From Dipteris shenzhenensis (Eukaryota), in NCBI GenBank assembly GCA_047967505.1, contig CM106538.1: a stretch of 64,000 bases of DNA; one strand, given 5' to 3'. Made by a program: the position numbers and the translations under genes. How positions within the stretch are numbered: the first letter of the stretch is position 1; the number at the start of each line of letters is the position of its first letter. This document shows positions 13,085-58,992 of this stretch, one piece after another. The notes under the pieces are model-generated. The model was not told the DNA's origin. It did no database searches and worked only from the letters and a program-made list of their open reading frames with translations.

Positions 13085-13138
13085 AGCTCGAGCCCAATAA
13101 GCTCACACCTTCACTTCCCAGTTTCATTTCATTTCATA

Positions 13139-22899: not shown

Positions 22900-24673
22900 G
22901 GTCGCCAGGTCTCAGGGCCTTAGGATATTTTTCAAGTTGTTTGGCAATATCTTTCTAGCATAGTTGGTGCTGCTCCGCACACCCCTTTAGACTACAATCA
23001 ATGGGTTGACTCCTTTCTTGAATGTACTCAGACGGTAGTTTATCACCATGAAGCAATGATAATTCAGAGGTCATTCTCATAATATGAAGTGCATTACATG
23101 GTCAACTCGATGGCCGAGGAGAAGACATTAGGTCCATATTGAATCCTGGTGGATTTTTTCTAGCAATACTAGCCGCGCTGTGTGGCAAGGACTTACTACT
23201 GTGCTCAATGCATCTTTTAGGAGAGTGTATTTTTCCCCAACCATGAATTGAGGGGTTGTGAATTTGATCCGCAAATCGATCAATCAGTTGCGCCCAGGTG
23301 ATTGGCAACCTTTGATGATGCTGAATGCATCATATCAAGTTGTAGCAAAGGCCTAAGCTTTATGCTTGAAGTTCCTCCTCGCCACACTTCTCCATCCTCC
23401 CAATATGGTTTCTTATATGGCTGAAGTATACACTACCCTATCTTTAATATGATGTTGGGGATTGACCACGTTGTCTCCATGATACTCAACCTCGACTTGG
23501 AGAAAGCCTATGATCGGTTTTGATGGGGCTTTGTCTTGAAGGTCATGGTCAAGCTCGGATTCATACCAGAATTTTGCTCTATGATGCAAACATTGTTCAT
23601 CAATGCAACAACAACGATCTCTATCAACAAATATCGGTATGACAATTTCCCCCTTAAGTGATTAGTGAGACAAGATTGTCCATTGGCCCCCCTTCTATTC
23701 GCAATTATAACAGAGCTGCTTCTCAAACAAATTGATAATCACATCAACTTGGGTACTATTTATGGTCAGCATGTGCCCAATGACTTAGTGTTCACCTCTC
23801 AATTCTTTGCAGATGATAAGTCAAATATTTTGCAAGCTTCTCTAGCCAATCTTGACAATGTCCTAAAGCTGTATGATGGCTTTGCCAAGGTCTCATATTC
23901 AAATGTCAATTCAGGAAAAACTACGGTGTTTGGATTTCAAGTGATTGTGCTAGGGAAGGTTATGCGCTACCTTGGTTGTCCACTCAGACTAGGGATCACT
24001 ACAAAGTAACGGATCTAATGGTGCATAGAAAAAATCATTGGTAAGTTTCATAAATGGCAAGAGAAAACACTGTCACTTCTTGGGCGATTTAAGCTTCAGA
24101 TGGTGTGGAGTTTAACCCCATCTCCTTGCTTGAATTTCTTATCATGGCAACTACTCACACGCAAGTTGCCTACCAATTATCGTTTAGTTAAATGGCAGGA
24201 CATTTCACCCTTGTGTCCATTTTGTACGTCCCAATTGGAGTCTCATTGTCATCTCATTTGGGGTTGCATTGTACCTACCAACATATGGCGAATATTGTGG
24301 AAATGGTTAGCACGGGCATATATAGATTCCTATGAGGTGGAAAGTTGCTCTCTTTGGTGATAAAGTGGGGATGAATGATGTCTAGTATGGAACTTATGTC
24401 ATGCTATTTATGATAGAATGCATATGGAGTGCTAGAAATAGTGTGGTATTTCAAAAGCACCCAGTGAAGTCAGATTTCCACCGTTCGATTTGTATTGAGA
24501 TTTTAGAAGTCCTCTTCTTCTTTAGGAGGTGAAATGTGAACCTACTCATGGTTGTTGCTAAGGCGCTGAGTTGAGTGCTGTAACCACTGTCAATAGCTTC
24601 TCTAAAGTTGGTATTGTATTCTTTTTTCTTTTTGTGCTGATTTAACTCTCATTCTACAAAAAAGAAAAAAAAA
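22900..24673 (+). mobile_element. Decayed L1-clade LINE (RT and zf-RVT) with A-rich tail
   Basis: DLEKAYDR, RQDCPLAPLLF, FFADD, YLGCPL and CPFCTSQLESHCHLIWGC motifs. A-tract at 24657-24673. Confidence 0.85.
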
Positions 24674-29148: not shown

Positions 29149-30139
29149 CTGCAGAGCAAGGCGGTATGTGCCCATAACATAATGTGAAGCCAGGAGGAGG
29201 AAGAGGCCACTTGGGAGTCACTCTAGCGTATTATAAGTGATGAATGAGAACCACAAAAGAACAACAAAGAAACAAGAAGAAAGGCAATCACGAGACAACA
29301 AAGCACCAAATTTTGTTTTTTTGGGGGGGGGTGTCCATAGGAAGAGAGGGGTTGCTATTGAATGAAAACGAAGGCAATAAAGGGAAATAAATGGGGGCTT
29401 TAAAGGACAATTAAAGCCGAACAATATTTACAAAACAAGAAGAAACAAAATGTCCTTAATAGTTGGCTGTGCACGTAACCTTTGAGTCGTTGCCACTTTC
29501 GTTTTTTTTTTGGCTGTTTTTGTTGTCAAGCTCGCCATCGCCCTTCTTCCCATGGCGGAAAGAATCTCTGCATGCACTTGCCATCCATTGCCTTCCTTGC
29601 CTCTCCCGCTTCTCTTCTCATCATCATCATCATCATCATCATTCCTGTAGCTCGAAATTGCTTCGCTTGAAAGAACTACCGCAGCAATCCGGCACCCTTA
29701 GTGTCCATCCTGCCGGACACGGCTGAAATTTCTAACGGTTTGCGCATTGCTTCTGCTTCTGCTTCTGCTTCTTTCGGTGGCTCCAACAGCACCTCCTGCA
29801 TTGCTTACCAGCCCCCACCTACCGTACTCTCGCTCTCGTTTCATCCGTGGATTCACCCCCTGCCAGTGGACAGGACACCAATCGTGGCAACAGCCTTTCT
29901 CTTTTGCATTCTCGAAAGAAGGGCCTGATGAGTCGACTATAATTTCCGGACAAGCGCAGCCATTTCTGCTGTGAATTGTCAGAAAAGTGTCAGCTTACAA
30001 AGTATTGCCTTTGCCCAACTTTCCTGAAAGCCTGAACAAAGGTGGACGCATGGATACCGCGCACACGGGGTACAGAAACGGGAGAGGGAAAGAAACAAAG
30101 AAAGAAAATTTATTATAGTCTTCGAAAGACGGAACGGTT

Positions 30140-30176
<37 letters not shown>

Positions 30177-30319
30177 ACCGCTTTCATCACTGCGAGTAGT
30201 GGGAGCCGTGCGAGAGGCATTCCCCGTCTGTTTCAGCAAGCAAAGACTGCAGTGGTGAGAACGGGCCATGGACTTGGCGGCATGGGAGGGGCAGGGGAGA
30301 AACGTGAATAGGAATAGTT

Positions 30320-30499
30320 ATGGGGCAACGCGCGCGATTTCAAATGAGGACGATGTTGGCTTCCGCGCTTTCCAGGAGTTCTCTGCTATGCGGAGCTGTG
30401 TTGGTGTTGCTGGCCTTCGTTTCGTTAACGACTGGACCGCTTCTTGACTTAGACAATTCGCCTCTCCGTCATGGCCCTACTCCAGTTCCCATTCCTCAT
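30320..30499 (+). CDS. O-fucosyltransferase-family (PF10250/GT106) glycosyltransferase exon 1 (type II TM anchor)
   Basis: MGQRARF...LLCGAVLVLLAFVSL hydrophobic anchor. GT donor at 30500, phase 0. Confidence 0.7.
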
Positions 30500-30641
30500 G
30501 TAATGTGACTAGAATTTCACTCAACTTCTCTACTTCTGACCTTCTCACATCTGCGCATGCCTTCGGCGTTTCGCGCGGCGAGTTTTTTCAGTTATTAATA
30601 TGTTGTTTCGTTCGTAAAACGACTCTACCTTGCTTTGATAG

Positions 30642-30713
30642 GATATCAAGTACTCAGCGTCAGCGCGCTTCCAGCGGAGGCAGCTCGAGGGCGCGCATAG
30701 AACAGGCGGCCAA
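30642..30713 (+). CDS. O-FucT-family exon 2
   Basis: AG/GTAAG boundaries, 24 open codons, phase 0. Confidence 0.65.
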
Positions 30714-30850
30714 GTAAGAAACTCCCTTTGCTGTTGGCATTCCACATATTTATTGCGAGTAGTAAGATCTCAGTATGCTGTCTTCATAGCTCTGAAAGTA
30801 TGAGCGCTGCCATGCTGTGTCTAATGCTCGTTTATGTGGATTTGTCATAG

Positions 30851-30941
30851 GCTTCCGTGCCAGCATTATCAGAAACCATTTGGGCTTCTAAGCTAGCTAA
30901 ATACTACCATGGCTGCAGTTCTCCAAATAGCTCCTTTCCAA
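30851..30941 (+). CDS. O-FucT-family exon 3 (IWASKLAKYYHGCS)
   Basis: Conserved W-S-Y-GCS stem motif of plant O-FucT proteins. AG/GTAAG boundaries. Confidence 0.82.
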
Positions 30942-32599
30942 GTAAGGGAAGAATCGAAGCTCATCATGTCATGTTACCTACCTCTATCGCTAGATGTTCA
31001 TTCAACGCTATGTGTGATATATCCCAAAAGTGTGCCAGACTCCAAATTCACTTTGAAGGAAACCAATCTGCATGTCTTTCAACCAGACTCTAGGTTAGAA
31101 CTGGCATAAAAGGTATGATAGAGAGGGATACATGTGTGTACAACAAAGATTCTCTCTCGTTTCAATAGCTTTGGGGATTATCATGTAAGTGTCGTTGGAG
31201 AGCATGCTAGGAAAGGTTTAATCAGACACTGCCTTTTTGATCATGCTATCCTTCGCTGGCATATGTTACAGATTCCTTATAAGGAGGGTGGAAACATCAT
31301 GGCTTTTGCTTTTGTGATACAACATTGTCTTTTAAAAGTTTTTACGAGCTGTACGCATGCTGCCTAGAATTACCGTGACTCTGTACTCTTTCAGCAACGA
31401 CAAAGACGTATCTTATCTGGGTGGACCTGAAGCAGATTGTAGGGCCCTTAATTTAGGCTTGAGCATTTTCATAATGGCTCAGAACTCTGGAGATTATAAA
31501 CTAGGAAGGATGTGACGGGAACCACTTTGCATGTATCTTATTTGTGTTCATGATTCTAGAGCCTGGGATCAACTTGGATCTTCAGCAAGGGTGACGTTGT
31601 GTGATGATAAAACATTTACTGCATGAAATACGGATAGAATGGAGAATCATATGTGGTCATAATGGGCGCTGTTGCTTGCAAAGAGCGGCCTTTACACATG
31701 CAGGCGTCGAAGAAAAAGTATACTGATGCTCTGTGTGTGTGTGCACGTGTGTATGCATATATGCATATTTAAATATCCGTGCACATGCGCACACTTTTTT
31801 TTAAGTGAAATGCACATTCACACCCACATCATATATGTAGATATTTATGTCTATATATGTTTATATATATGTATGGACGTGTGTTGGTGTGTGAGATAGT
31901 TAGCAAGGCAAAACATTTTCATGCCATAAAACTTCTAATTTACATTTCACCTAACCATTCACTCTTGAGCACAAATACTTCATTCATAGTGTGAATGGCA
32001 ACTGCACACTAGAAACGTACATAAAATTTGATGCATCCTTTATATGCCTTTTCATGCAAACAATTCATACTTTACAAGGGCCATATTGGCGTCAAAGATA
32101 CAATAATGCATATTTGAGGCAAGATTGATGGAAGACGGTTACAAGTGGGGCCCAAATTTGTGAGTCAAAGCTTGAAATGTGTAAGGTGACCTTTGAGATG
32201 AAGAGCGGAAAACGTTCACTAGATCATAGCTTTTGTTAAATCTGAGCGAAGGACATGGGGACACCAAGACTGCAAGCTAAGGCTAGTTACTATGCTAATG
32301 GCCACGTGCCACATTGAGGCTGTTAAGTCTCCCAATCCTATAGTCGAAACATATGTGTTGCAATCATCTCTTGTTGCTCATAGGAACTATTGCTACATGT
32401 ATTACCTACATGACGTAGTGCTTCTAACAGAGTTTAGTGCAATGTTGCCTTTTTGTGATCACTCTAAGTAGAGAGGCTAAGGCTTTAGAGTAGATTTGGT
32501 CTTTTACAAATTGAAGAGCAAGTTCGACGTTATCCAGTTGACAAGGGTGCTCCACTTTAGGGACACACAGAGAAGGCTTGTACTAGGAGGTGTAATGCC

Positions 32600-33100
32600 T
32601 CAATTACATGGCTTGGTGACCAGTTTCTTTGGTGAAGTTTATGCTCATATTTTGATCAATGAGTTCGATAGATAGAGATCTCACCTCTTCCAACGTTGAG
32701 TAGAAAGCTGAATGCAATTACAAATTGGTCGCCTACTTGTTTGTAAGAGTAAAAAGTTAGGCTGAATTCTGTTTGAATGTCATAATAATCTAACCATTGG
32801 ACATCCAAGAATGCTAAATACTTACGCGCTTCTAAAAATGTCAATTTTACCGACCTCAAACGAGTAAGGACATCAAAGACTATGTGTTGTGTGGTTAAAT
32901 TCAAAAATGAATGTGTGACCAAAGCAAAAGTGAAAACCCTCGAATTAGCCAAATTGTACATGGAGCAAATAAGGGCCTTTGCTGCCATGATGATATATGA
33001 GAGCTTTCTTCTTTTAGATCATGGAGGATGGAGGTGAATGATGATCTAGAATGATGCATTTGTGTAGGAGCCTTGCTCCATAATTGGTCATTGCAATATA
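32600..33100 (+). mobile_element. Very decayed gypsy integrase-like remnant
   Basis: FYRPQTSKDIKDYVLC (cf. FYWPxMxKDIxxYVxxC) and TLELAKLYMEQI, across stops. Confidence 0.35.
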
Positions 33101-33940
33101 TGTGGAGCACATCGCGTGATGGGATCAGCAACCTGCGATCACTTAACTTTGTGTTGACTTGTTGAAAGTGGGCCTAGAAGCATTGTCTTTCCAATCTAGC
33201 TATGAGGCATGTCTTTGGTGAGATGGTCCTGTGTTTCTGGTTTCATGCTAAACTTGGGTCTCTTGAATACCATCCCAAAATCACAGAAGATGTAATTATC
33301 CCAATCAGCTCTTTTATTAGAGTGATTCATGTTGACGATGCTCAATACTAGTGGTAAAGATCATGACCTTGACCTTTCATGTTGTCAATGCTCAATACTA
33401 GTAGTGAAGATCATGACCTTGTCCTTCAGATCTTGGCTCGTAAAGAATGGCTGTAAGTTTGACAAGTGTCGTTGCAAGCGCTTTGCTTTAACACAAGCGT
33501 GAAATGGGAGTGAGGGTTTTTGCCAACATTGAGCCTTGTCCTCCAAGAGTGTTCACAAAAGAGGCCAACTCGCCTCTATAAAATTAAAAGGGGGTAGGAT
33601 ATAAGGAGAAACCTTACTCAACATGGATGGTTTAACATCCTTATGTGCGGACTTTGCCTTTCGGTCTCACCAACAAAACCTTGATTTGCCCAAATGACAT
33701 CATTAGTAATGCCTATTGCTTGGAGGTATGAAATGAGGTGAGCACATGGACCAAATGAAAGGTCTTGTAGAAATTGACGAAGCAAGTGTACACATTGTGT
33801 TTTACCTACCGCTCTCTTATATAAAACTAGGATTGCCCAAATGACATCATCAACAATGCCTATCTCTTAGAGGTGTGAAAAGAGGCTAGTCAATGGGACC
33901 AAATGAAGGGTCTTCTAGAAATTGATGAAGCAAGTGTACA

Positions 33941-36480
33941 CATATGTTCCGCACTGGGACTCTCCTGCATTTCTACGTCGCATTCAGATATTATCATATT
34001 AGCCGTGCGACGGTCTTTATTCAGTGGACAATCCTTCCACTGATGTCGCTGAAGGCAGCCGAAGCACAATCCTTCTTTCCTAGCTTTCTCCTTTTGTTCA
34101 GGGGTCAACGAGGACTTTGACCAAGCTCGGGCTGCCATTGGAGTTATTTTCCTTTTCACCCCAACGGTGGTACTTGTTTTTACTGGTCCCTCAACCGGCT
34201 TCACCTGCTTGGTTTGGCCACTTGGCTGCGAGACACTTGTCTTTGAAACCCATTTCCTCTGAAATCCCCCTTTTCTCGGGTGCTCATACTGAGTCCCTGC
34301 CTGCACAAATCCACCAGATCTACCTCTTGCATCCTCATAGTTCAGGGCTACTACTATAGATTCATCTAGTGTAGTCACATATTTAGCCCGAACTTCCATT
34401 TTGATCTTGTCGTTCAGTCCATAGATATAGTCTTTTAACTGAACCGACATAGGGAGAGGGTCGGTTATTTTCATGACACATTCCCTGAATTTGTCAGTGT
34501 ACTTTGCCACTGACAAGCTCCTCTGACGAAGATTTCTATAAGCATCCCAAGCTCGGGATTCTTCATCAGGTGGAAGAAAGTGTTTCTTGAATATAGCTTT
34601 AAACCCTTCCCAGGTGGTTGGAGCAACTTGATCCTTCTGTTGCTTTATCCACCATCTGTCCGCTGCCTCAATAAATAGGTGTGTGGCCTCGCGGATTTTC
34701 TTTAGATCGGATCTAATCTCACAAATGGCGAAGGCTTCTTCCCACTTGTGCAACCAAACCTCGATCACATCAGAGCTGCGCTCGGTCATCCGACCGGCGT
34801 ACTTCTCCGGTCTATAATTAGCGATATTAGGTACTTTGACCCTTGCGCGCCCTAAGGAATGTACACTGGGCTCTGGCTCAGCTAGAGCTTTGCCCTTATC
34901 AATCCTAGACGGTCTAGCCGACAAGGCTTGCACCATCTCCCTAATCTCATTTTGACCAGCATTCACTTGAAGTTGTTGGTTCATAATCTGCTGTAAAGCA
35001 TCCTCTAATATTGAAATCCTACCAATCAATGTAGGTGTTGCCTGATGTGACATCTGTTGTGTAGACTGTACTCTAGACTCACTAGGATTCACTCTAGAAT
35101 TCTGTCCTTCTGCTTCCATAGGTTCACAGTGGAAGATGGGGGTTTTTTTTTTTCCCCCCCCCTTCCTTTGTTGGGGGTTTTTTTTTTTTTTAAAAACAGA
35201 AAAGATAAACGACAATCCCTGTTGTATAAAACGAATTAACTGTAACTCAAAATTTTTTTTCGAAAGAAATGCTTCCTGGATTCTCCACGCGATCCGAGTT
35301 CATGCGCTCCTGACTTTCGCGGTTATGATCTCTCTTTGTAAATTTTTTACGCCTGCGGGTATCCTTCTACAAGTTGCAATTCCTCCTCTAGCATACGGAT
35401 TTGCTGCTGGAGACGCTGTAGCTCGGCATGCTTGCGGTGCTTGCCGTACACATCTGGGGTGTGCGGGGTCTAGGAATGGGAACAACTGACGAAGAAGCCG
35501 TAATCTAGTGGTGAGAAGTCTGCCATCACGTGTGCACTGATCGACAAAGCCAAGGGATGTTGGGAAAAAACTTCGGGTCTTTCGTGGCCGTCATTCCGGT
35601 TCATATTTCATCGTCGCCTCCTGCTCCGCTATCCCGCTCTCAGCTAGGATCTCCCGGGACTCGCTCCCTTTTAGAAGTCTTACGATGAGCAGATTGTCGC
35701 AACCTCAGACCGTCAGCAGGACCTGAAACTGGTGCCTCAAATCATACTGGAATCATGTCTGTCGTCTATCACACACCTGCGACTGTCTTCCCAAACGGAC
35801 GAACGTAAGTGACTCCTTACGTGGCTTCCGTCGATATATTTGACACTCACGTCGCTACCAAGGGTTCCTCGTCACGACAGCCAACAATCCTAATTTGTCG
35901 TAGATCGTGCACGTCGCTCATCACATATCCCCTGATCCTCCACCTGCTGTCCGTCACAAATCGACGGGTTCTACCTTACCTTCGCTCTGATACCAAATGT
36001 AAAGGTCTTCTTACTACTCGTCGTTTCGATCGTGATAAGTCTCTCCACGTCGCAGGTAAATATCACGGGCGATGGCTTTTTTTTATTCCTCCCAGCCAAC
36101 TCTCAGGGATCTGATGCGTCATCTTACATATATCCATCGTTGTTTTTCTTCATCCTTATCCCTGAGACCCACAATTCCCTAGATAGTTCCTGGCCACATG
36201 TCTTCATTTTAGGCCCCTTCTTAAATGCATCCTTTTTCACCCCTCTCTTGGAGTTCCTTTAAAAACAATTGCCCCTTGGCAATTTGCACATTTAGATGCA
36301 CCTAGGCCCTAGCCCTATTAGAACTACCTAGTCAATGCCATTACGCCCTCACCTAGGACCTTGGCAGTTACTTCTCTTGACCATTTAATTATGCACATTA
36401 ACTATTACAAAAGTTGGTCATCTAAGAGAAAATGCCCACCGATCTATCCGAGGTCATGCTATCTCGGCTAGAGCATAACA
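33941..36480 (-). mobile_element. Chromovirus copy B, 5' half (LTR 35998-36480, PBS 35984-35995, open gag), now inverted
   Basis: Open gag ORF with retrotransposon-gag core and CFGCLQRHQWKDC knuckle. PBS TGGTATCAGAGC. 483-bp TG..CA LTR. Confidence 0.95.
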
Positions 36481-36974
36481 GTAGGATAGAGGGCCGGACT
36501 GCATGGCTATTCAATGCCTCTTGCTGGTCCATGTGCTGCCACGATGGCCATGGAGGATCCCGAGAGGGGTGCGGATCTATGCGGGTATGTCAGTGCCACG
36601 GGACAGCTCCTGGAGGCGCCCCTTATAGGCACTAGCTGCAGGCTTTGGAGTAGCAGGTGGGCCGACTTGCAGGTTGGCCACCTTGGCTAGAGAGCAACCC
36701 CCATAGGCTGGGGGTGAGCCCTCTTTATAGGGTTTTAGGTAGCCTTAGTGGTAGGTCGGCCCACCTAGGCTGGTCGACCCCTACAGCAGGGGGTCGGCCC
36801 CCATTCTCCATCAGTCAATTAGGGAAGGGGAGGGGAAGGCTGCCTATATATAGGCCCCCTTGTGTCCTTGTTTTCATCTTCTGGTGGACACATGGACCAG
36901 CCTCTTCCAAGCATCCTCAGGAGCAATCCTTCCACCCTTGGGGTGGAGTAGTTCTTCCATCCTTGTTTAGCTCA
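36481..36974 (+). repeat. Displaced (inverted) part of the 3' LTR of the gag-only copia-like element
   Basis: Reverse complement of ~43060-43563. Confidence 0.85.
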
Positions 36975-37479
36975 ATTGTGGAGGTCATTGAGCAATGTTC
37001 CCGGCTCTTGAGTGGCCCGTTGTGCAAAGGTTTTCCCGTAGGTGTTGCGGGGCTTTTGCCAAAGATCACTTGCAGTTATTTTGTTTCTTTCTCTCCCTCT
37101 CAGTGGGTGTGTGTGAGGAGTGTACTCTCTCTCCATTTCTTTCATTTCCGCTACACTTCTCACGGCATCCTAGAGAGACCGATACAAAGACGAACAAAAG
37201 AAGTGAAAAACATCCACTAAAGAGTGCTCAATAGTCAAATGATACAGGCATGTTATAACGACCAGAGGGCCCAATAGCGACACCTCTTGTCGTGTAATGT
37301 GAAACTTTCAATCAAGTAATTTATTAGCACTACCTCCTTGGAGGGAGTGCTATAATGGAGGATTGAAACTCTTTTGTGTATTTCCATGTGTATGAGAAGA
37401 AGTGAGCATAGTCCGGCATCATATCTGCCAAACATACACACACAAACACACATATGAGGAGGCTAGATACCAAAAATAT

Positions 37480-40400
37480 TATGCAGATGCAACTGGCGGG
37501 ACCTTCTCAGAGGTTAGTACCTTGTTTGTTATGTGTATCTGTTGCTAAGTTAGTGACGAGTGCACCTGATAACATCCTATCTAAGCCCGCAGCAACGGGG
37601 TATACAGCCTTTAATGATACGGAGTTAATTAAAATGAAAGGGCAGGTGGCCAATCATGATGTCATTGTGTTGTTTGACTCGGCGTCAACTCACAATGTGA
37701 TTAACTCCAAACTCGTGAAGAGGCTGAAATTAAAGACAAGTCCATCTGACTATGCGTACACAGTCAGGATGGCAGATGGAAGTTCAACTGAAGTATGGGA
37801 CCAAAGGGTTACCCAGTTGGAGCTTCGGATTCAGGACTATGCTGAGAAGCTTGATTTTGAAATGACCAAGCTTGCTCATGCAGATATAGCCCTGGGAATG
37901 GCATGGTATTCTAGGAAGAATCCAGCCATTGATTGGAAAAAGCACGTATATGAATTCAAAATGAATGATGTGCTTTATGTCTTACGAGGTGAAAAAGATA
38001 TACCTCAGGGACCGTTGGTTTCCGTGATGGAAATCAGAAAGGCTCAAGTAGAGTTTTTGTACCTTTGCACAGCATCGGTAGAGTCGGTGAATGATTCTTC
38101 GGCTAGCACTGATGTTACGCAAAGTGGTGAGATGGCCCAGCTGGCTAATCTTATAACAGAGGAGTTCTCTGAATGTTTTAGGGATGAACTACCTTATGGG
38201 TTACTTCCAGAGCGGAAAGTTTAACATAAGATTGAACTGATCCCGGGGGCAGAACCTGTAAATAGACCTCCCTATAGAATGAGTTTTGCTGAAGAAGCGG
38301 AGGTGCGTAGGCAACTGGAAGAATACCTCAAGTTGGGGCAGATTCAACCAAGTTTCTCACCTTTTGCTTCGCCAGTGATATTAAAGAGGAAAAAGGATGA
38401 TACGTTTCGCCTCTGTATAGATTACAGAGCATTGAATGATATCATTGTTAAGCACAGGTATCCGATGGCTCGGATTGATGATTTGCTAGATGCATTACAT
38501 GGAGCCGTGATTTTCAGCAAGATAGATCTTAAGTGCGGCTATCATCAGATCTAGATTAGAGTCGAGGATGTGCATAAAACCACTTTCAGGAGCAGGTTTG
38601 GTCATTATGAGTTTTTGGTAATGCCCTTCGGACTTACCAATGCTCCAGCGACCTTCGTCATGCTTATGAACGATTTACTACGTCCGTATATCGGAAAGTT
38701 CGTAGTACATTTTATTGACGATATATTGATATTCAGTAAAAGTGTTACTGAGCATCGTGAACACTTAAGGATAGTGTTCAGTACTTTGAGGAAAGCCAGT
38801 CTTTATGTGAATAAGAAGAAAACTATACTGTGTATGGTTAGGCTTGAATATTTGGGTTTCATAATCACTCCACAGGGGGTAGAAATGGATCCGAAGAAAG
38901 TGGCTGCGATACTAACTGGGCCAATCCCTCAGAGTCTGACCGCGTTGCGATCATTCTTGGGATTTGTCCAGTTTTATAGAAGGCATATCAAAGGATATTC
39001 CGGAATAGTATCGCCATTGACTGATCTGACCTCAGATAAAGTACCTTTTATTTGGGGACAGAATCAACAAGAAAGTTTTAACACCATAAAACAAGCTGTG
39101 GTCTTAGGACCGGTGTTAAAAATAGTTGATCCCCAGAAACCGTTGTTCCTAGAAACCGATGCAAGTGGCATTGCGGTAGGAGCAGTCCTCCTTCAAGAGG
39201 GAAGGCTAGTAGCCTTTGAAAGCAAGAAGCTTTCTCCCTCTCAAAGGAATTGGCCAACTCATGAATTGGAGTTGTATGCAGTTATCCATGCTTTGAAAAC
39301 ATGGAGGCATTATCTGTATGGTTCAGAGTTTTATGTGGATGTAGATCATGATACTCTGAAACATTTTTGTAAACAACCTGACTTGAGGGGCCGCCAAGCT
39401 AGGTGGGCAGAGCTCATGCAAGAGTTCAATCTAACGATTCGGTACCGAAGAGGAAAAGACAATAAGGTAGCTGATGCGTTGTCTCGCATTATGCACAACC
39501 TGAGTTTCACGGTATTAGAGAGTGCTCTAATGACTAAGATAAGAGAAACTCAAAAAGTGGACGAGTTTGTCCAGAGCTTATGGTCTAAGGCTCATGTGTT
39601 AAAACCCGGGGAAAGTGAAAAGGATGACCTGGCATCCAGAAAAGGTCAAACTTATGCAAGATATACCATAAGGGATGGTATGCTAGTTAGAAATGGCAAG
39701 GTTGTAGTACCTGATCAGAATGATCTCAGGCAGAGAGTCATTCGACAGTGCCATGATAGCCCGTGTGCGGGACATCCAGGAGTCGAGAAGACATATGATC
39801 TCGTGAGGCGAGATTTCTTTTGGCCAAAGATGAAAAAGCATATTCATGAATATGTGACACGGTGTTTCTCGTGTCAGGTAAGTAAGGCCGAGCGGGTGAA
39901 GCCACCCGGACTGTGATAGCCCTTGGAAATACCACTAAGTAAGTGGGAGAGCATTTCCATGGATTTTATTGTAGGGCTACCTGCAACACAAGGAGGGTAT
40001 AATTCTATCCTTGTGGTGGTTGATCGTCTAACCAAGATGGCTCACTTCATTCCAACTAGAGAGTCTGTTAGTGCCCCGCAAGTGGCGGATTTGTTCATTA
40101 GACATATATTTCGTCTGCATGGATTGCCTAGATCCATAGTGTCAGACCGAGATGTCAGATTTACCGGTCATTTTTGGACAGCGGTATTTGAGACACTAAG
40201 GACTGAGTTGGGAATGAGTAGTAGGGATCATCCTGAGACGGATGGTCAGACGGAGAGAGTCAACCAGACTTTAGAGGATATGCTGAGAGCATATGTGTCA
40301 TTGAGGCAACATACATGGGACAAGTGGTTGCCATTGTTGGAGTTTGCCTACAATGATAGGAAACATTCATCTACCGGGTTCAGTCCGTTTGAGCTGAACT

Positions 40401-41500
40401 ATGGTTATAGACCAGCCAATCCGACTATAGTTGGAGTACCTCAGAAAGTGCCTAGTGCCGCGAACTTTGTAGTTCAGATGCGGGAGATGCTAGCACTTGC
40501 GAGAGCTAATATCCGCCAGGCTATGGATAGAGCCAAGGTGTATGCGGATGAAAATCGGTTTATAAGAGTATTTGAAGGAGAAAAAGTTTTTCTCAGAATT
40601 CCTTCGCACTCGAAGTCGTTGACTTCAGGAGAGTGTGCTAAGTTATCACCTCGATACTGTGGGCCGTGGTTAATTCTAAAGAGAATAGGCAGTGTAGCCT
40701 ATAAATTAGAATTGCCACAGGGGTGTAAGGTGCACCCGGTTTTTCATGTTTCGCGCTTAAAGAAAGTTTTGCATTCAGGTGACTCACTAATCGAAGGTGT
40801 GGTTTTGTTTCAGGAGATAGAGGATATTGCAAGGCGCAAACCGACAACAATCCTGGACCGAGGAACAATGCAAATACGAAATCGGAAGATACCCACGGTG
40901 TTGGTTGCATGGCATGGTCAGCCTCTATCGGAAGCTACCTGGGAATCCGTATACCAGTTACGGAGAGCGTTCCCAGATTTCATCATCGAGGACGCTGATG
41001 CTTGAAGAGGGAAGGAATGTTATGCTCTAGCCGAGATAGCATGACCTCGGATAGATCGGTGGGCATTTTCTCTTAGATGACCAACTTTTGTAATAGTTAA
41101 TGTGCGTAATTAAATGGTCAAGAGAAGTAACTGCCAAGGTCCTAGGTGAGGGCGTAATGGCATTGACTAGGTAGTTCTAATAGGGCTAGGGCCTAGGTGC
41201 ATCTAAATGTGCAAATTGCCAAGGGGCAATTGTTTTTAAAGGAACTCCAAGAGAGGGGTGAAAAAGGATGCATCTAAGAAGGGGCCTAAAATGAAGACAT
41301 GTGGCCAGGAACTATCTAGGGAATTGTGGGTCTCAAGGATAAGGATGAAGAAAAACAATGATGGATATATGTAAGATGACGCATCAAATCCCTGAGAGTT
41401 GGCTGGGAGGAATAAAAAAAAGCCATCGCCCGTGATATTTACCTGCGACGTGGAGAGACTTATCACGATCGAAACGACGAGTAGTAAGAAGACCTTTACA
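37480..41500 (+). mobile_element. Chromovirus copy B, 3' half (protease-RT-RNaseH-integrase-chromodomain, PPT, LTR 41018-41500)
   Basis: LFDSAS, IDLKCGYHQI, MPFGLTNAP, FIDD, ETDAS, HPG..KT, MDFIVGLP and YCGPW motifs, plus chromodomain VLVAWHG...EATWE. PPT GAAGAGGGAAGGAA. A few in-frame stops. Confidence 0.96.
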
Positions 41501-43696
41501 CCGACTTTGTCCTCACGGGGAGGCGGGCACACCCACAACGGGGACCTTTCTCCGGACTGACCTATCCTCACACTAGGTGGGCACACCAACAAGCACTTGC
41601 CCTCTCTCACAGGTGACATCAGGAGATGTTGATCTCTAACACCCCTCTTTGCTCTTGGATGGGAACACAAACGCCAGGGAGTTGGGTGTGCCGTTGGAAC
41701 AACTGGAGGAATCCGTCGTGTGATATTCCATCGCTGAAGACCGCATCAGGTAATGTCAAAGAAGCCCCCTCTTGGCGCGAAGCGCTTTAGCATGATCACG
41801 GGGAACCCGTAACTGTTGCTCCCAGGCCACAGGTGCTAGGTACACTCCTCTGGTCTTGCGCTGGTACTATATGTCATTTGGTACAACAATCCAACTGTTG
41901 GTACTCCAACAGAAGGTATTGGAACGCTGCCACCCATGCAAGGTCAGCTTCCCTGCATGGGCACCTGTATCTCAGAGCTAGATAGCGCCCTCTCATATCC
42001 AAATTGGTACATTGTCGCCAGGTTGATGAACTTCAATGCTCCAGCCTCCAGGGACAATGGGCAAATAACAGCTCACAAGAATCAATCAAGTGTGTCCGGA
42101 CTCCGGCACCAGCAATCTGCTGATCCATCCAGATCTCCAGCAGCTCATCAGGCAATAGCTGCAACAGAACACTAGGAGACCCCCTCTCGATCTGCCAGGT
42201 CATAATGTCTAAACAAAATGCATACTGGTAACATACTGCCACATGAGTCAGTAGGAACAACTCTTGGTGGCTCGATGTCCTGCCTGAAAGCTTGCCTCGA
42301 TGATAGACTCTCTTCCTACTGCACCTGACGAATAGAGGACCCCATACTGGGATGATAACTGGGACAAAAGAGTTATGGCCATGTCCTCGACTACTTCCCT
42401 ACCTGGAGGATCTCCTGCTGAAGTTCTTGCAACTTGTTGATATGGTCCCGCATCGATGAAGACTTCTTGGGATCCATCATCCAACAACCGCATCTGGACT
42501 TCTTGGGAAACCCTCATGGAAGAGGTTCGATTATACAGGGACGCCAAATGCTCCCATATACTCTTGGCCACTGTCATGTGCTTCATGTGATTATAATCGC
42601 CTGAGGAGTACAGTTAAGAAAAATGAGCGATCTTACCCTTGCATTAACATGTTCCCGGAGCTGAGACAGGGTCTCGGCCTCCTACTCTAGGATGCCAAGA
42701 TTGGATGCAAGGGGATTTGGTCTGGTAACGCCGCTCAATTATGAAATCTGCCAGATCATATGACTGTAACACAGACTCCATCATCACCCGCCAGATGCTG
42801 TAACTGAGCCCATGCAACTGACGGTCAATTGGGAATGTGGGCAACACTGGAATTCTAGTCTTGTTCTCTACCATCTCGGACAAAGTCGCCATGTTGGGGA
42901 GAGAGCTGAACTGAAAGAGGTGAATGGGATAGACAGTGACAGAAGGTGGAAGAAAGGAGAGGGCTGGAGAAGAGGATGAAGGGGCTGACAGCCCAATGTA
43001 CCTTCACTCCTCGCTATCTGTCCCTCGGGAACACCTCCTCTCTGATTTGAAAACACATGAACAAGGATGGAAGAACTGCTCCACCCCAAGGCTGGAAGGA
43101 CTGCTCCAGAAGAACTGTTCCAGGTGATGCACAAGGGGCTGGTCCACGTCTGGAAGAACTGCTCCACCAGAAGATGAAAACAAGGAGGAAAGGGTGCCTA
43201 TATATAGGCAGCCTCCCCCTCCCTAGTCGGCTGATGTAGAATGGGGGCCGACCCCCTGCTGTAGGGTCCAACCAGCTTAGGTGGGCCGACCCACCTCTAG
43301 GGCTGCCCACAGCCCTATAAAGAGGGCTCACCCCCAGCCTATGGGGGGCTGCTCTTCAGCCAAGGTGGCCGACCTGCAGGTCTGCCCACCCCCTGCTCCA
43401 AAGCCTGCATATAGGGCCTATAAGAGGCACCTCCAGGAGCTGTCCTGTGGCAGCACAACATGCACAGATCCGCACCCCTCCCGGGATCCTCCATGGCCAT
43501 CGTGGCAGCACATGGACCAGCAAGAGGCACTGAATAGCCATGAAGTCCTGCCCTCTGTCCTACTCTGTCCTCACGGGGGGCGGATATACCCACAACGGGG
43601 CCCTTTCTCCGGACTGACCTATCCTCACACTGGGCGGGCACACCCACAAGCACTAACCCTCTCACATGTGACATCAGGAGATGTTGATGTCTAACA
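41501..43696 (-). mobile_element. Gag-only (non-autonomous) copia-like LTR element
   Basis: 5' LTR ~43048-43696 starts TGTTAG on the minus strand. Copia-type gag fragments YSIWRVMMESVLQSYDL and AKSIWEHLASLY. PPT AAAGAGGGG precedes the 3' LTR start at 41641. No pol in the ~1.4-kb interior. Confidence 0.78.
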
Positions 43697-43896
43697 GATT
43701 CGCATCTCTTGGAGACCTTCCACTGGCCCACCTAGAAGTCTTTTATTACTGCTTTTAGTTTCTGAGTAGTAGCTGTTTTACTTTGGACAGCTATGAATGT
43801 TTAAAAAAACAAGAAATAGTGTGTGCAAAAGTGTGTGTGTGTGTGTGTAGGCCCTTGTGGTACTTGGCTGTGCCATTTCAAAGCTTTTGGATGGTT

Positions 43897-44560
43897 GAGA
43901 GAGAGAGAGAGAGAAGAAGAAGAAGAAGAAGTAGAAGTAGAATTTATTATTGTCCTCGGGGGGCCAAAAATGACCCATGGGACCTAATCCTCAGTACAAA
44001 AATCCTCCTCCGATGTGGAGGGGTCAAGAGTTTTCAAGTTCTTAATGGCACGAAAAAAGACGAGTGACAAAAGACCCCAACGTTGCTGGAGAGGCAGTGG
44101 AGAGAACTGATGAGAGCTGTGTGGTGTCTACCAGTATCTGCTGGTAATCATCCCTGATATGTTTATATCTGGGGCACTGTAGGGCTACATGTGTCTCTGT
44201 CTCGACTGTTTGTGAATCACAAAGTCTGCAAACTTTGGCATGTCGTGGCAAATTCAGCCAAGCTCCTTTCTCTATGGCCAAGGTATGTGACCGTGTGCGG
44301 AATCTGGCAATATTCCTGCGATAGAGAAGAGGGATGGGAGTGCTGATGTATGGCTGAGCAGAGGCATCTGATTTCATGAATGATGACCAGCATAGAGGAT
44401 TTATTTGATCTTGGTAGTATCCTAACTTGGTCTTCCTTTCTACTGTCAGCCATTGAGTCTGTAGGGTGCATAGTAAGGACAACTGGAATTCCTGTAGTTT
44501 GACCTTTTCAGGTGGCATAGTTAAGTATGGTTCCACATCTGCTGAACCATTTCCTTATGT
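43897..44560 (-). mobile_element. 3' end of a non-L1 LINE (RTEX/CR1-like) with (TTC)n/(TC)n tail
   Basis: ARFRTRSHTLAIEKG...VCRLC...VETETHVALQCPRY..IR C-terminal motif, then AATAAA and a microsatellite tail. Confidence 0.75.
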
Positions 44561-45125
44561 CTGTCCCCCATCCTGTACATATGATCTTGCTTTTATGGTT
44601 CTTTTGAGAGAGAGAGAGAGAGAGAGAGGAAATAAAATTTATTAAGGTCTATGAAAGACCAAAGGGTCTATGAGATTGAAAATACAATGAAATCTAAGGG
44701 TGGGCCACTAAAATGGACACCCCGACAAGAGAAGCTCGGCTAAGGATTGAGAGAGAGAGAGAGAGAGAGAGAGGAGGAGGAGGGGGGGGGGCTTGTTGCA
44801 TGTTGTTGGTTATGCTTTGAGCTATTAATATACTTTCAATATTTATCATACTCTATATAGGTGTTGCTCGATAAGTAGTAGGTTGAGTTTCTTCTGTTTT
44901 AAAGATTCCTCTTTGTTAGCTTTCAAGGAAATTTTGATGTCATTTTTTACTTCTTTTAAACATGTGGATGACGTTCTTTCACACTTAGCAGATATTGTGG
45001 TGCTTCCGTCTGTAAGATTTCTTTGATTGGTATTGTTTACCCCTTCTGCTTCCTTTTCTTCTTGCTTGGCTCCCAAGAGGAAAAGGAAAACAACACTGGT
45101 ACAAATTTTTGATGTCATGCTACAG

Positions 45126-45202
45126 GGCGAGTTTCCGAGTCTGAATCGAATGGTTATATTTTGATCCAAACAAGTGGAGGGCTAAATCAGCAGAGGACGG
45201 GG
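45126..45202 (+). CDS. O-FucT-family exon 4 (SNGYILIQTSGGLNQQRTG)
   Basis: GGLNQQR hallmark. Phase matches exon 3. Confidence 0.9.
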
Positions 45203-45468
45203 GTAGTAATCTCAACAGCGTTTGCTCTTGCAATTTCTTACCTCTGTGACTGCAAGCTATTTTGTCCCTTTGTCTCCAAAGTCGTTTTCATAAGTGTATG
45301 TATCCCAAAGAACTGCATGCTTAATCTAGCAAGCAAGGATTGCGAATGCTTTTTGAGGTCTTGTATGTTTCTATTTGTCTAATATGTTACCCAACATATA
45401 TGTTTCTCCCTTAAGTTGGCGTAGTTTTACTTTGATGGAATTGAGTTTTTTTTTGGCTCCACTTTCAG

Positions 45469-45557
45469 ATTATTGATGCTGTGGTGGTTGCTTGGATCTT
45501 GAATGCCACATTGGTCGTTCCTCGCTTGGATCATACATCGTTTTGGAAGGACACTAG
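45469..45557 (+). CDS. O-FucT-family exon 5 (IIDAVVVAWILNATLVVPRLDHTSFWKD)
   Basis: LNATLV.P hallmark. AG/GT boundaries. Confidence 0.92.
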
Positions 45558-45971
45558 GTTGGTGATCACAACAATCTTTGATTACTCTTCCCTTGAAAGT
45601 CCACCTATATACTATATTGGACACGATCTATATACTTTTTATTGAAGGTAGTGTGGGATGTGTTGATGGAATGAAAGAAACAAAGCTACCAGCTGTCAAG
45701 TTGATGGTTTACGACACACTTAAACTTGAAAGAGGCCAATTGTTGGCCTTAACAACATGAGGTAGACATAGAGGATTGATATATGTAGTTCTCTTCTATA
45801 TGGGCCAATAATTGACTGAAACATGTGTGCCCCAATATGCCTGCACACAATCACACATGCAGACTCAATAGATTGAGGCACAAGCACAGACACTTGGGCT
45901 CAGACATAGTCACGTAGACATAGCCGTAGGTGTAGAGACAGAGAGATGTTAGTGTGTGTGTGTGTGTGGCA

Positions 45972-47849
45972 ACTTCTCTCATACTTGGATCATCTTACCG
46001 CACAAGGTCTTCTCACTCGTCTTCAGATTCCTGGAGCCCCTTCCTTTATCGCTCAGGCCTATGCAGATGATTCTTTTTTTATGCAACATAATTCTCCACA
46101 GCAGTTGAAGACTATTATGGACACTCTTTCTTCATATGGCTTGGCTGCTGGCCTGAATGTTAATTTTGATAAATCTAGCCTCATACCTTTGCATTCATAT
46201 GATTGGCATACTCTATGGCCTGGGCACATTATGCAGCCCTATGATGTGGTCCGCCATCTCGGTCACCCTATTGGCTGGCACATCACTAGGAAACAACATC
46301 TAAAGTGGATTTTTGACAAGCTTCATGCCAAACTCCATTATTGGAAGCTCTCCAATTGGCCACTCCATGTTAGGCTCCGGATTGTCCAGTCGATTATTAT
46401 GGCTTATGTTCAGTATTATTTGCCTTTGATGCACTGGACTTCTCAAGACATTTTTGCCTTTATGTCTCACGCTATGGAACTGTTATGGAAAACAAAGTCT
46501 TCTGCTAAAGCTCTAAGACTTATGAGGATGACAAAAGTCTGTTCCCCAAGGATGCACGGTGGATTGAATGTGCTGAATATTGCGCACCATGTCTTGGCCA
46601 GGAAAATTCCTCTTCTACTCACCTTTTTTGGTCAGAAGCAGCCATGGACTCATATGCTTGCAACCATGTGCACGTCCTTACGTACTACTGCACATGGTGC
46701 ATGGATCACTGATTTTTGGGAGGTCATTTTGGGCAGATTTGTAGGCTCTATCCCAGGTTGCCCTTTTGCTACTTCACTTATTAGTGATTGGAAACAGGTC
46801 CTTTCGCATGCTCATTGGGCCCCTTCCGTTTTGTCTTATGCCAATTCCCTTCGGCAAGAAAGTATTTACTGGAGTGCTGTTTTTGATCCTCCATTGGCCC
46901 TCCAAGAGCCGATTCGGGCATATAATCTCAGCAAATTGGGGATCAGGTGTATAAATGATGTTGTTGATGCTACTGGTCAAATGCTTTCCTTCCCTCAAGC
47001 CATGGCTTCTTATCCACTAGCCATGCATTACAGGTTTATTTGGGGAAAAATTGCTGAATTGCTTCAGCCTTTTCTTCCCATCCCTCCTTTATCTAACATG
47101 GACCGATTACACGACTGGCAGTTACACCCGGTGGGCTCAAATTCTCGTCCTGTTACTCTTTCTGACCTAACGGTTAGCACGACATACTCTTTCCTCCAGC
47201 CGTCACCATGGATTCACTTACATGCTAATTCTCTTTGGCATATGGCAAAATCACTTGCTTGGTGGCGAAAGAATCTCCGCAGTTTATGGAGGAGCAAATT
47301 GCCTCTCAAGCAAAAGCTTTTCCTATGGCGTTGTCTTACAGGAACCTTATCCGTGGGGGTCACTCTGGCTCAACGAAGGATTGCATCTGCTTCTTGTCTT
47401 CGATGCATGGCCCCTTCTGAAACGGTGCCTCATTTGTTTTGGATGTGCTCCAGCACTAAGACCTTCATATGCAAAATTTCCATGTCGCTTCGCCTTCGTT
47501 TCCCTAACTCTCCTTTTGGGAAACATTTTTGGCTTTGTGGCAGACTTCCTACAACCCTGGTCCATCACTCTTTATTTTTGTACTGGGTCAGATATTGGGC
47601 TTTTTGGACCATATGGCAGGATCACAACATGAGATATTTTGGGAATCCGTTCTTGCAATCTTATGAATATTTCAGACTCTCCCTACGGCAATCTATCTAT
47701 GATGCTTGCCATCAAGGAGATCTTCCTCAGTCATGCCTGGAAATAGTTTCTCTTTGCTTTTGAATTCCTGTTGAGGCTCTCTGTTTTTTGAGACCCTCAT
47801 GTAAATTTTGCTGATAATATAATCATGGATTTACCAAAAAAAAAAAAAA
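45972..47849 (+). mobile_element. Young 5'-truncated L1 LINE with open ORF2 C-terminus and poly(A)
   Basis: ~600 open codons with AYADD and zf-RVT (CLRC...ETVPHLFWMC). A14 tail. TSD GTGTGTGTGTGTGGCA on both sides. Confidence 0.93.
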
Positions 47850-47969: not shown

Positions 47970-50140
47970 GACGACCTGCTTCATGTTTGCTTTGGACTGT
48001 GTGCAGCCTTTTCGGAGCCCTTACCTCTGCTTGTGGGAGATTTCGTCTCTGTTTGCCATCCTGCGTGCTCTCTAAAGACACCTTCAGCGCCTCGTTTTTG
48101 GTTTTCTCTCTGCTTTGCCTACTCTGTGAGTGCGTCGGAGCTGTGTATGTTGTGTGTGAGACAGTATTCCTGCAAGTATTCTTGTCGCAACAGGTTCCCG
48201 TGCCCTCTTGTCCAGGTCCCGTGTCCTTCTGTCCAGGTCTCGTGCCCAGTTGTCCTCGTTGCTTTATTGAACCTATTCTGGCCCAACAGCTACAGCGTCG
48301 TCGCCCCTATCTTGGTTTCAACCCAACCTGTCTAGTTCACGTACTGTCTGGTTAATCCCTCTCTCGCTTGGTTCGTGCCCCGCTTGTCTATTCCATTTCT
48401 GCTTGCTATCTGCCCCGACTGAACTTTCTGACCCATCTGTTTATTTCGTCTTTTCATAGCTTGTTACCTGACTGCAATTTCAGCGTTGAATCTTTCTATT
48501 GAATTGACTAGCTTCAAAATGACAGAAACAAATAAGTATTATGTAAAGAGGGCGCTCTCTCCAGAATCCAAAAGACAGTCAAGGGAGACTCTGCCCCCCA
48601 TAGCCCCTTCATCTGAAGATGCTTCCTATGTGTTTGACATGTTGAATGAGGAATTTCAACAAAGTAGAAGAGAATGGATGTTGCTACTTACAAAATGAAG
48701 TTGCCTTCTCTTGTGCATCCTCTAAAGAAGCTCTCTCAGACTGCAGTCATCATCTTTTTCCCAGGGAAAATACCTTTGGCTAATGATGTGGGACAATGGG
48801 TAAATTCCCTCTTAGGTGGCTGCTATGTGGAAGGAGTTTATTTTGCCTCCCGAGGATTTTATGAAGTTCATCTCTTGGATGCCTTGACAAAACAAAAGAT
48901 GTTGGAAATGTCCCCTTTATTTTTTGGCTGTCAGATGGTGCACATCATGCCTTGGTCTCCTAATAAGGACTATTAGAATCTCATCAAGCACCATTGCCTT
49001 GTATGGGCTGAAGTGGTTGATTTTCCAGATATCATGAGAACGGAGCTTTCTGGCTTAGCAATGACATTGGGACAAGTGATATGTCCCCCTCGTTCCACAG
49101 GTAATAAAAATCGCTTTTGCATCTTATGGGATACTGATAGACCAACCCCTCCTTCTATTGCTGTTGAGATTGAGGGTGTTAATTTGGGATGCTTCTGCTC
49201 CTTCTCTTGGTCAACCATCTACCTCTTTTGATAGCCCCATCTCAAAGGCATGGGTTAATGCAGTCAAGAAGGGTATTCCGCTTTGTAAAGAAGATGATCT
49301 GGTCAGGGAATTGGATTCTGAGGCTCAGCAAGACCCTGAGGCAATGGCAGAGGCGTGATGCCTCCTTTTCTTTCTGAGGACTACTCATTTCTTGTACATA
49401 TTTTCATGCGTGCTTCTCTTAAATGTGTCTCTTACAATATACAGGGCCTTTGCAACCCGAATAAATGGAGGCTCCTTTGGTACTATATATAAATACAACT
49501 CATTTAGATGTTGTGTGTGTGTAAGAGCATAATCAACATTCTTTTCTACTCCTCAGGTTGAATTGGCTCGGAGCAAATTTATTGATCTTGTCTCTCCTAT
49601 TGTTTCTTTGCCAAAAGCTTCATTGTTGGAAGTGTCTTTTTCAGATATTGAATTGGATGATTCTCTCAAACATTTGGGTAAACATAAATCCCTTGGCTGG
49701 GATTGTTTGACGGTTGAATTTTTTGTAGCCTTCTGGGCTGAATTGAAGGGTTCAATCTTGAAGCTCATTAATGTAGCCTGGCAGCATCAACATCTTCCTT
49801 CAGCCTGGAAGCATGGTCTGGTCAAGCTTGTGCCCCAAAAAACTCCTATGTGAGACTATGGCTGACTGGAGGCCCATCAGTTTGATGCCTGTTATATATA
49901 AACTTATTGCTAAAATGTTGGTTCATTGGATAAAGGATATTCTTCATGATGGTCTTTATCCCAGGCAATATGGTTTTGTTCCAAGAAGGAATATACATGA
50001 TAATATCTCCAATACTCTCATCGCAATGGAATATGCTAAATATTCAGCTCAAGATGTTTTGGTCATGCAGGTGGATGTGGCAAAGGCATTTGATACCGTA
50101 CAGTGGGATTATGTCTCTCAAACCATGTCTAGTTTGTTTG
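47970..50140 (+). mobile_element. L1 LINE 5' part (5' UTR, ORF1 DUF4283-like, internally deleted ORF2)
   Basis: ORF1-like RGFYEVHL...MPWSP, endonuclease start SYNIQGL, RT WRPISLM...QYGFVP...DVAKAFD. Frameshifted. Confidence 0.85.
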
Positions 50141-50149
50141 GGTAGGTCC

Positions 50150-52385: not shown

Positions 52386-53239
52386 TAAATTTGGGACGTG
52401 CTATGGTATTGAGAAAACCTATTTGATCAAAGAACCTATAATTAAGTGGGTCGAGTGTATTCCTTAAGGTGTTCGTGTGGCAAGGCCTCGAAGAGAGTAC
52501 TGTGTTGCTATCTTGTGTACATGAGGCATCCAAATGTGATAATTAGTACTCAATTAGTCACTTATGGATGCCACTAACACCACCCTCTTCCATTTGGAGC
52601 TTGTTCGGGAGCTTGTGTAGATCAATGGAATTCTTGTATTTAGAGTGGAGGATTATTTTACTAAGTTGCACGTGAATCTTATATGTGATGAAGTCTCCAA
52701 ATCTTTACATTTTTCATTACTCTGAGTTCTATTGCTAGCTTTATCTTAGATTTGATCTTGTATTTGCGCCTTTTTTGCTTGTGTGATCCTAGTGGATCAT
52801 TTTGTTCCTTGCGAAAACATGGATTACCATTGCATGTAAATGTACTTTAGTGTTAGCATGTAACCAAGCTTTCAACCATGGTAATTGTGAATCTATTTGA
52901 GATCATATCTTTGGGTAGTGATCAAAGGTGCTAATTTAGGCTTGAACTTGTATAGGATCACTTTATTTAAATACGGTTGAGTGAACCTTGAAAATTTATG
53001 AACTCGTCTATTTATAATGTGTAAACAATTAGTTAGTCTTGCTACATAATGAAACACACAAACTCATCTTGCAGTTTACAGTCATGGTTGTTTTTTGGTT
53101 TTTGTTGCAACTTGTGAGTTTAGGGATATGTCTTCTTTGAGCAAATTGTTTGTTCTCTAGGTACAAGTTTTCCAAGAAAAAAAAGGTAAGGATGTTCTGG
53201 TTTTTCAATGTTCTCACTGGTTTAAACTTGGGTTTGCAG

Positions 53240-53426
53240 CAACTTTAGTGACATTTTCGACGTAGACTGGTTCATTGCCACACTTGCCCCATATGTATTG
53301 ATCATAAAAGAATTCCCACCACAATTGGCAAACCTTGAAGAAAGGGTTTACTCAATGCGTGTACCGAGGAAATGTATGCCGGAATATTTCACGAGTAGAG
53401 TGTTGCCCCTCTTACAACGAAAGAAG
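53240..53426 (+). CDS. O-FucT-family exon 6 (NFSDIFDVDWFI...MRVPRKC)
   Basis: F.DIFD.DWFI hallmark. Phase-consistent AG/GT boundaries. Confidence 0.92.
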
Positions 53427-53667
53427 GTTTGCATTCTGAGATTGAAAAGTTTGGAATTTTTTTTGTCATTCAGTGCGTGTGACATCTTTCATTAAAGAAT
53501 ATGCATGCCTAACAACTTGAAGTACCCCACAATTGCTCCTTGTTGTCATACAAGTTTCAACAGGCTATTATCAAATTTTTATATGTATTCCACTAAAAGT
53601 GTGTTTTTGTTGCTACCACTTAATAAAAAGGTGGTTGTTACTATGTAAGCAACTTAAAATTCAGACA

Positions 53668-58810: not shown

Positions 58811-58992
58811 GCAATTCAACTAACTAAATTTGATTATAGGCTCTCAAATAAGCTTGAGGATAATCTGCAAAAAGTTCGTTGTAGGGTAAATTATGATGCC
58901 TTGCGCTTTACTCCAGCTATCAAAACAATGGGTGAGACATTGGTGGAGAGGTTAAGGCAAAGGGCTGGTCGATATATTGCACTACATCTCAG
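58811..58992 (+). CDS. O-FucT-family exon 7 (KFDYRLSN...RCRVNYDALRF...YIALHLR)
   Basis: RCRVNY and ALHLR hallmarks. AG/GT boundaries. Confidence 0.93.

Follow-up and report, generated by a model that had tools for sequence, protein, structure and literature searches.

Inverted repeats that derive from transposable elements (TEs) and are read from a neighbouring promoter are an already established idea of how silencing can be triggered. For Mu killer of maize, an inverted duplication of a DNA transposon, a hairpin RNA, small interfering RNAs (siRNAs) and heritable silencing have been shown, according to the accessible part of the source (PMC3440606); the locus is cited as Slotkin 2005 in the accessible part of PMC11624286. 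The same article, within that part, describes an antisense nested insertion of the Arabidopsis element EVD, in which opposed long terminal repeats (LTRs) are a proposed hairpin source that starts transcriptional silencing. For composite Ac/Ds insertions with inverted duplications, double-stranded RNA (dsRNA) and siRNAs of 21-24 nt have been demonstrated, as far as the available sections of the preprint go (bioRxiv 10.1101/2020.01.07.897926). Here, we describe a locus in a 64,000-nucleotide stretch from Dipteris shenzhenensis (assembly GCA_047967505.1, contig CM106538.1; below, "the window" is this whole stretch), where a Ty3/gypsy LTR retrotransposon in the third intron of an O-fucosyltransferase-family gene appears to have been split by an inversion, so that its two LTRs face each other.

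In its anatomy, and in its anatomy only, this locus is a well-documented case of a known type of event, the TE-derived inverted repeat of the Mu killer kind. It shares with Mu killer, as portrayed in the consulted part of PMC3440606, inverted arms made of a promoter-bearing terminal region and located where gene transcription can read through both of them. It differs in that an LTR element underwent an inversion, in that the arms are intronic, and in being known from sequence alone. Among the features of the Mu killer class, the inverted arms are present, and both lie in intron 3 of a gene that is represented by a spliced contig, which may come from another allele. As in the EVD arrangement (accessible part of PMC11624286), LTRs of the same family face each other, 1.9 and 2.6 kb apart there and 4.5 kb apart here; EVD reached this state by self-nesting, whereas here a single copy was inverted, and in both cases the role as a hairpin source is only proposed. 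In the Ac/Ds insertions, too, a transposon was rearranged inside a gene and gave inverted arms transcribable from the promoter of the TE or of the flanking gene, but there a DNA transposon had undergone alternative transposition (available sections of bioRxiv 10.1101/2020.01.07.897926). What sets the present locus apart from the compared systems is the route, the inversion of one intronic copy. A limited literature search found no description of an LTR hairpin formed in this way, which does not prove its absence from print.

We consider it likely that the element is an LTR retrotransposon of the plant chromovirus type that inserted in sense orientation into an older repeat, R, within intron 3, and that it was later split by inversion of positions 33941-37483. 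An earlier note on this stretch had proposed such a history, and its description of the sequence features proved correct in every detail that could be checked. The parts of the element are as follows:

33941-37483, minus strand: inverted segment of 3,543 nt, which comprises gag with its leader (2,057 nt), the LTR (483 nt) and DNA that formerly lay upstream (1,000 nt)
33890-35299, minus strand: gag frame, 469 codons from stop to stop, open to the break, followed by 16 host-encoded residues and a stop
35984-35995, minus strand: primer binding site (PBS), TGGTATCAGAGC
35998-36480, minus strand: 5' LTR (arm 1), 483 nt, TG..CA
37481-41005, plus strand: pol frame with protease, reverse transcriptase, RNase H, integrase, SH3 and a chromodomain-like end, with four in-frame stops
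41004-41017, plus strand: polypurine tract (PPT), GAAGAGGGAAGGAA
41018-41500, plus strand: 3' LTR (arm 2)

A repeat search of positions 30000-46000 returned a sole long inverted pair, 35998-36480 and 41018-41500, with arms of 483 nt each that are 99% complementary and separated by 4537 nt. Base-by-base comparison of the two LTRs in the same sense gave five differences, all transitions and two of them at CpG, in agreement with the five transitions that had been counted by hand. Both LTRs start with TGTTATG and end with TTTACA, and they now stand in inverted orientation. The PBS lies 2 nt inside the 5' LTR, with TT in between, and we take it to be complementary to plant initiator tRNA-Met; the PPT adjoins the 3' LTR. 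The positions of the PBS, of the PPT and of the frames matched by Pfam agree on the division between the strands: LTR, PBS and gag are on the minus strand, and protease, reverse transcriptase, RNase H, integrase, PPT and LTR are on the plus strand, as claimed before.

The gag frame matched Retrotrans_gag (2.1e-12) and Ty3_capsid (1.3e-12). The plus-strand frames at 37412-41005, all in a single phase, matched aspartyl protease, RVT_1, RT_RNaseH, Integrase_H2C2, rve and SH3_Tf2-1, in the order protease, reverse transcriptase, RNase H, integrase. At the C-terminus of pol, the Chromo match was weak (E = 0.0057, 17 bits, under the cut-off of 25.1). The integrase C-terminus is 45% identical over 228 residues to that of a copy at 62705-63403, and its residues 308-355 align to the chromodomain of the latter, which is above the cut-off at 33 bits. 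Translation of pol is interrupted by stops at 38222 (TAA), 38552 (TAG), 39914 (TGA) and 39917 (TAG). Gag has no stop in 469 codons, against four in the roughly threefold longer pol, a difference that is not significant. Among the best 120 polyproteins listed in the "longer" class, the nearest show no more than 48% identity. With the plant Ty3/gypsy chromoviruses (Metaviridae) the element shares TG..CA LTRs, a PBS, a PPT, a 5-bp target duplication, the one-frame order from gag through protease, reverse transcriptase and RNase H to integrase, the SH3_Tf2-1 domain and a chromodomain-like C-terminus; it differs from them in being split by the inversion, in the four stops in pol and in a Chromo match that stays below the Pfam cut-off.

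The unbroken form of the gag-protease junction can be seen in a related fragment elsewhere in the window:

1273-4906, minus strand: copy A, a related colinear LTR-gag-protease fragment, which provides the unbroken junction for comparison (corresponding point at 2061-2063)

By blastn, the gag half of the split element matched copy A at 2061-2913 and the pol half at 2063-1273, on one continuous strand of copy A, while the alignment switches strand in the split element at 33941 and 37481. At the break, gag ends with ..SPSAEHM, and pol reads MQMQLAGPSQRLVP from 37481. The translation of copy A continues over the same point as ..SPRAEEMQIQLAGSS*RLVP, which bears out the claim that flipping the segment rejoins the two reading frames. 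Contigs of four coded public runs, out of six listed ones that all had small shares (0.00-0.11), were mapped onto 30200-38100 and also include the colinear form. In one of the four runs, a 511-nt contig (X3 record 17) links 33945 to 37480 on opposite strands, with four letters that fit either side; it has 10 differences in 458 nt and hence represents another copy of the family. In run X2, a contig at 33941 and two more at 37480 continue into the start of the other half.

The four bases CATA (33941-33944) and TATG (37480-37483), which are part of a CATATG palindrome, are found at both ends of the segment and only once in the colinear copies, including the colinear contig, in keeping with the earlier report of a 4-bp overlap common to both breakpoints. 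On the element side, no base is missing relative to the colinear copies. Both breakpoints are in single-copy sequence, with no LTR and no repeat longer than four bases. The CAT at 33941-33943 also fits a 147-bp tandem repeat of the host, the first unit of which reads GTGTACACAT at the homologous place. The left breakpoint is situated at the end of tandem repeats (33326-33425 and 33676-33943), consisting of two 50-bp units that are 90% identical and about 1.8 units of 147 bp (74-94%), the second of which ends exactly at the break.

Copy A is itself a mosaic relative to 33941-38270, with identities of 73.8% in gag (856 nt), 72-73% in the LTR and 95.1% in the protease region (791 nt), and it stops abruptly at 1273. 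In 50-nt windows, its identity steps from 0.78-0.80 to 0.90-1.00, and this step lies no further than about 30 nt from the position that corresponds to the inversion break. This boundary reflects either chance or a site at the gag-protease linker that is prone to recombination or breakage. As the source of the 95% identity, gene conversion after the insertion was rejected, because the divergence that remains between the pol half and copy A is about five times that between the LTRs.

The insertion site could be reconstructed from a second copy of the repeat R on the right of the element:

36481-36485, minus strand: left copy of the target-site duplication, CCTAC in element orientation
36481-36967, minus strand: left half of the older repeat R, now inverted, which matches 43060-43564 in reverse
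36968-37480, minus strand: single-copy DNA inside the inverted segment, without other match in the window
41501-41505, plus strand: right copy of the target-site duplication, CCGAC, with one mismatch
41501-41641, plus strand: right half of R
43058-43696, plus strand: uninterrupted paralog of R, taken as the empty site, in which CCTAC occurs once

The reverse complement of 36481-36967 and the sequence 41501-41641 align head to tail on the uninterrupted paralog at 43060-43696. The left flank is 83% identical, reversed, to 43060-43564, and the right flank is 88.7% identical to 43559-43696. On the paralog, the two alignments share precisely five bases, CCTAC at 43559-43563. The sequence next to the element is CCTAC on its left side and CCGAC on its right, while the paralog has one CCTAC. 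As judged from these alignments, one element inserted into a repeat of about 640 bp, producing a 5-bp duplication that was later altered at one base. R starts with TG and ends with CA, and its two copies, separated by about 1.4 kb, enclose a weak gag match of the copia type (42251-42613, minus strand, E = 0.0033, below the cut-off). The two copies are probably the LTR pair of an older, degenerate and internally deleted element, one LTR of which received the chromovirus; a target duplication of R itself was not found.

The whole rearranged locus is contained in one intron of the host gene, which was delineated with the following features:

30942-45125, plus strand: intron 3 of the O-fucosyltransferase-family gene, 14,184 nt, GT..AG, holding the whole rearranged locus
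45445-45642, plus strand: O-FucT (PF10250) frame, model positions 17-65
53226-53492, plus strand: O-FucT (PF10250) frame, model positions 52-121
58775-59026, plus strand: O-FucT (PF10250) frame, model positions 116-187
59402-59809, plus strand: O-FucT (PF10250) frame, model positions 207-323

The frame at 59402-59809 matches plant proteins of the O-fucosyltransferase family, with fern and conifer sequences among the top matches (about 80-83% identity). A tblastn search with six of the 120 listed homologs served to place the exons. Upstream of the locus, five of the six queries placed exons at about 30257-30496 and, again five of six, at 30851-30943; downstream, all six agreed on 45137-45289, 45469-45582, 53235-53468, 58808-58996 and 59243-59782. 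A 2,587-nt contig from one of the public runs (X1 record 1) is spliced at 30499|30642 and 30713|30851, corresponding to GT..AG introns at 30500-30641 and 30714-30850, and its alignment breaks off at 30942. Its next 30 letters match 45127-45156 with two mismatches, which joins exon 3 to exon 4 (45126/45127). The third intron, which begins with GT at 30942 and ends with AG at 45125, measures 14,184 nt, and the inversion touches no exon, as the earlier note had stated. It had also called the host gene intact: the conserved exons are indeed open, and the description holds as far as those exons go.

Several observations weigh against the proposed history. The target duplication has one mismatch in five bases. 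In all four public runs, there was zero depth in 11 bins at 30992-33895 and in three bins at 36536-37327, and neither the host-gag junction at 33941 nor the host-pol junction at 37480 was bridged by any contig of these runs; as both junctions are thus uncovered, the inversion stands on this assembly alone. The continuation of the 147-bp tandem unit that might be expected on the host side was sought in the inverted flank by blastn-short and local alignment, and nothing rose above chance. In a separate scored alignment of the 27 nt after the homologous point of the first tandem unit with the reverse complement of 37441-37480, the score was reached by 571 of 2000 shuffles and by 17 of 200 control 40-mers. 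Host DNA may have been lost, or more than two breaks may have been involved. The 4-base overlap is as compatible with a filled-in staggered break as with microhomology end joining. Finally, the spliced X1 contig matches the window with no difference in 300 nt of exon 1, one in exon 3 and two in the 30 nt of exon 4; its source may be a different allele, individual or paralog, and it is no proof that this allele is transcribed.

Some of these points would also follow from a more complex event, in which the inversion was combined with a loss of host DNA or took place in several steps or template switches. The 147-bp unit is cut at 33943 without the expected continuation at the reverse complement of 37441-37480, and the four bases at both ends could reflect a staggered break or replication-based template switching. 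The element side, though, is complete when compared with the colinear copies, and the tandem array may simply have ended at the left break. A complex history of this kind is unlikely in our estimation.

The two junctions, supported by this assembly and left without coverage in all four public runs, could also be an artefact in which a piece of 3.5 kb was misoriented and the true locus is colinear. Orientation errors arise at LTRs and other repeats, but these breakpoints are away from both, in single-copy sequence with only four shared bases, and both junctions are precise to the base against the colinear copies. An artefact seems quite improbable, and we infer that the assembly is correct at both junctions.

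TE-rich introns often harbour nested and opposed insertions, and the window contains other retroelement fragments, so two elements of the same family might have inserted head to head and each been truncated later. This reading was rejected. The outer flanks are the two halves of one R that meet at one 5-bp site, a pattern that two independent insertions cannot give and that indicates a single one; in addition, both truncation points would have to fall on the same four bases of the element, and the LTRs are 99% alike, leaving such a double insertion very hard to credit. A DIRS-like element with natural inverted terminal repeats, suggested by nothing but the orientation of the termini, was likewise rejected as practically out of the question, given a DDE integrase (rve, Integrase_H2C2), a PBS, a PPT, TG..CA LTRs, a 5-bp duplication and colinear family copies; the Pfam scan of the element frames gave no match to a tyrosine recombinase.

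Inversion of a single chromovirus after its insertion is well supported by the internal evidence of the sequence: the R paralog, the target duplication, copy A and the colinear contigs all favour the order of events given in the earlier note, while continuity on the host side was not found. That note had further specified a microhomology-mediated mechanism, and the four shared bases and the lack of long homology fit this, but the overlap would equally suit a staggered break; end joining with an overlap of at most four bases is the most likely repair pathway. According to this reconstruction, the element would first have inserted in sense orientation into R in intron 3, with duplication of five bases of target. 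Two breaks would then have arisen, about 1 kb upstream of the 5' LTR and within the linker that separates the zinc knuckle of gag from the protease, and the segment 33941-37483 would have been put back in flipped orientation, most likely by end joining. This would have parted the promoter, PBS and gag from pol, PPT and the 3' LTR; with gag on the minus and pol on the plus strand after the flip, no full-length genomic RNA could be made from this copy. The LTRs would have come to oppose each other, 4.5 kb apart within one intron, so that a pre-mRNA spanning the intron could fold into a 483-bp stem.

The insertion was presumably recent, as claimed before, since the LTRs differ by about 1%. The LTR divergence (K = 0.0105) corresponds to an age of about 0.4, 0.75 or 2.4 million years if 1.3e-8, 7e-9 or 2.2e-9 substitutions per site per year, respectively, are assumed.

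On a plus-strand transcript, 480 of the 483 positions of the LTR arms can pair (478 Watson-Crick and two G-U, with three A/C mismatches), and the longest run of perfect pairing is 167. The computed energy of the LTR duplex is -949.1 kcal/mol, compared to a mean of -187 kcal/mol for 20 shuffles. The fold-back stem of about 480 bp and 99% identity that had been predicted is thus possible, and a transcript of the intron might form a near-perfect 483-bp RNA stem. A second, poorer inverted pair is formed by the left half of R and its paralog (36481-36967 and 43060-43564, 83% identity).

Such a stem could plausibly fold before splicing and decay of the intron, be diced and give rise to dsRNA or siRNAs, although these steps are inferred from the structure. 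If the siRNAs then led to methylation of all LTR promoters of the family, the host gene would drive a silencer of the family to which its own intronic element belongs; we regard this outcome as a doubtful one. The 5' LTR, which now points against the direction of the gene, could be a source of antisense RNA. It is also conceivable that the open gag frame behind the intact 5' LTR yields a Gag-only product that interferes with particle assembly.

The surroundings of the locus are rich in other elements. The host gene has introns of 14.2, about 7.6 and about 5.2 kb that are densely filled with retroelements, and remains of a reverse transcriptase of the LINE (long interspersed nuclear element) type (zf-RVT, RVT_1) occur at 45910-47763, 24019-24357, 49777-50142 and 61542-62162, all on the plus strand; one of them is a 617-codon open frame in the next intron of the same host gene. 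A third chromovirus fragment on the minus strand at 62705-63802, with an integrase core, SH3_Tf2-1 and a Chromo match of 33 bits, belongs to another family, judging by its 45% protein identity to the split element. On the minus strand at 12347-13102, an open frame with a PGP_phosphatase domain (5.2e-20) probably represents an exon of an adjacent gene of the host that runs on the opposite strand. Rfam gave no matches at the gathering thresholds within 30000-46000.

Taken on the assembly alone, the locus is a structural oddity of an intron rich in TEs. A real inversion would make it a clean and datable example of how ordinary break repair can disable a young retrotransposon, and would at the same time have placed a long inverted repeat in a transcribed gene, a structure that has been proposed to start silencing of an entire family. 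Such a start of silencing has been shown for DNA transposons, whereas for LTR elements the starting loci are mostly hypothetical, and a naturally occurring LTR example under a host promoter would be useful for tests. Should the locus truly act as a silencer, it would be an LTR-retrotransposon counterpart of Mu killer that arose from a simple inversion.

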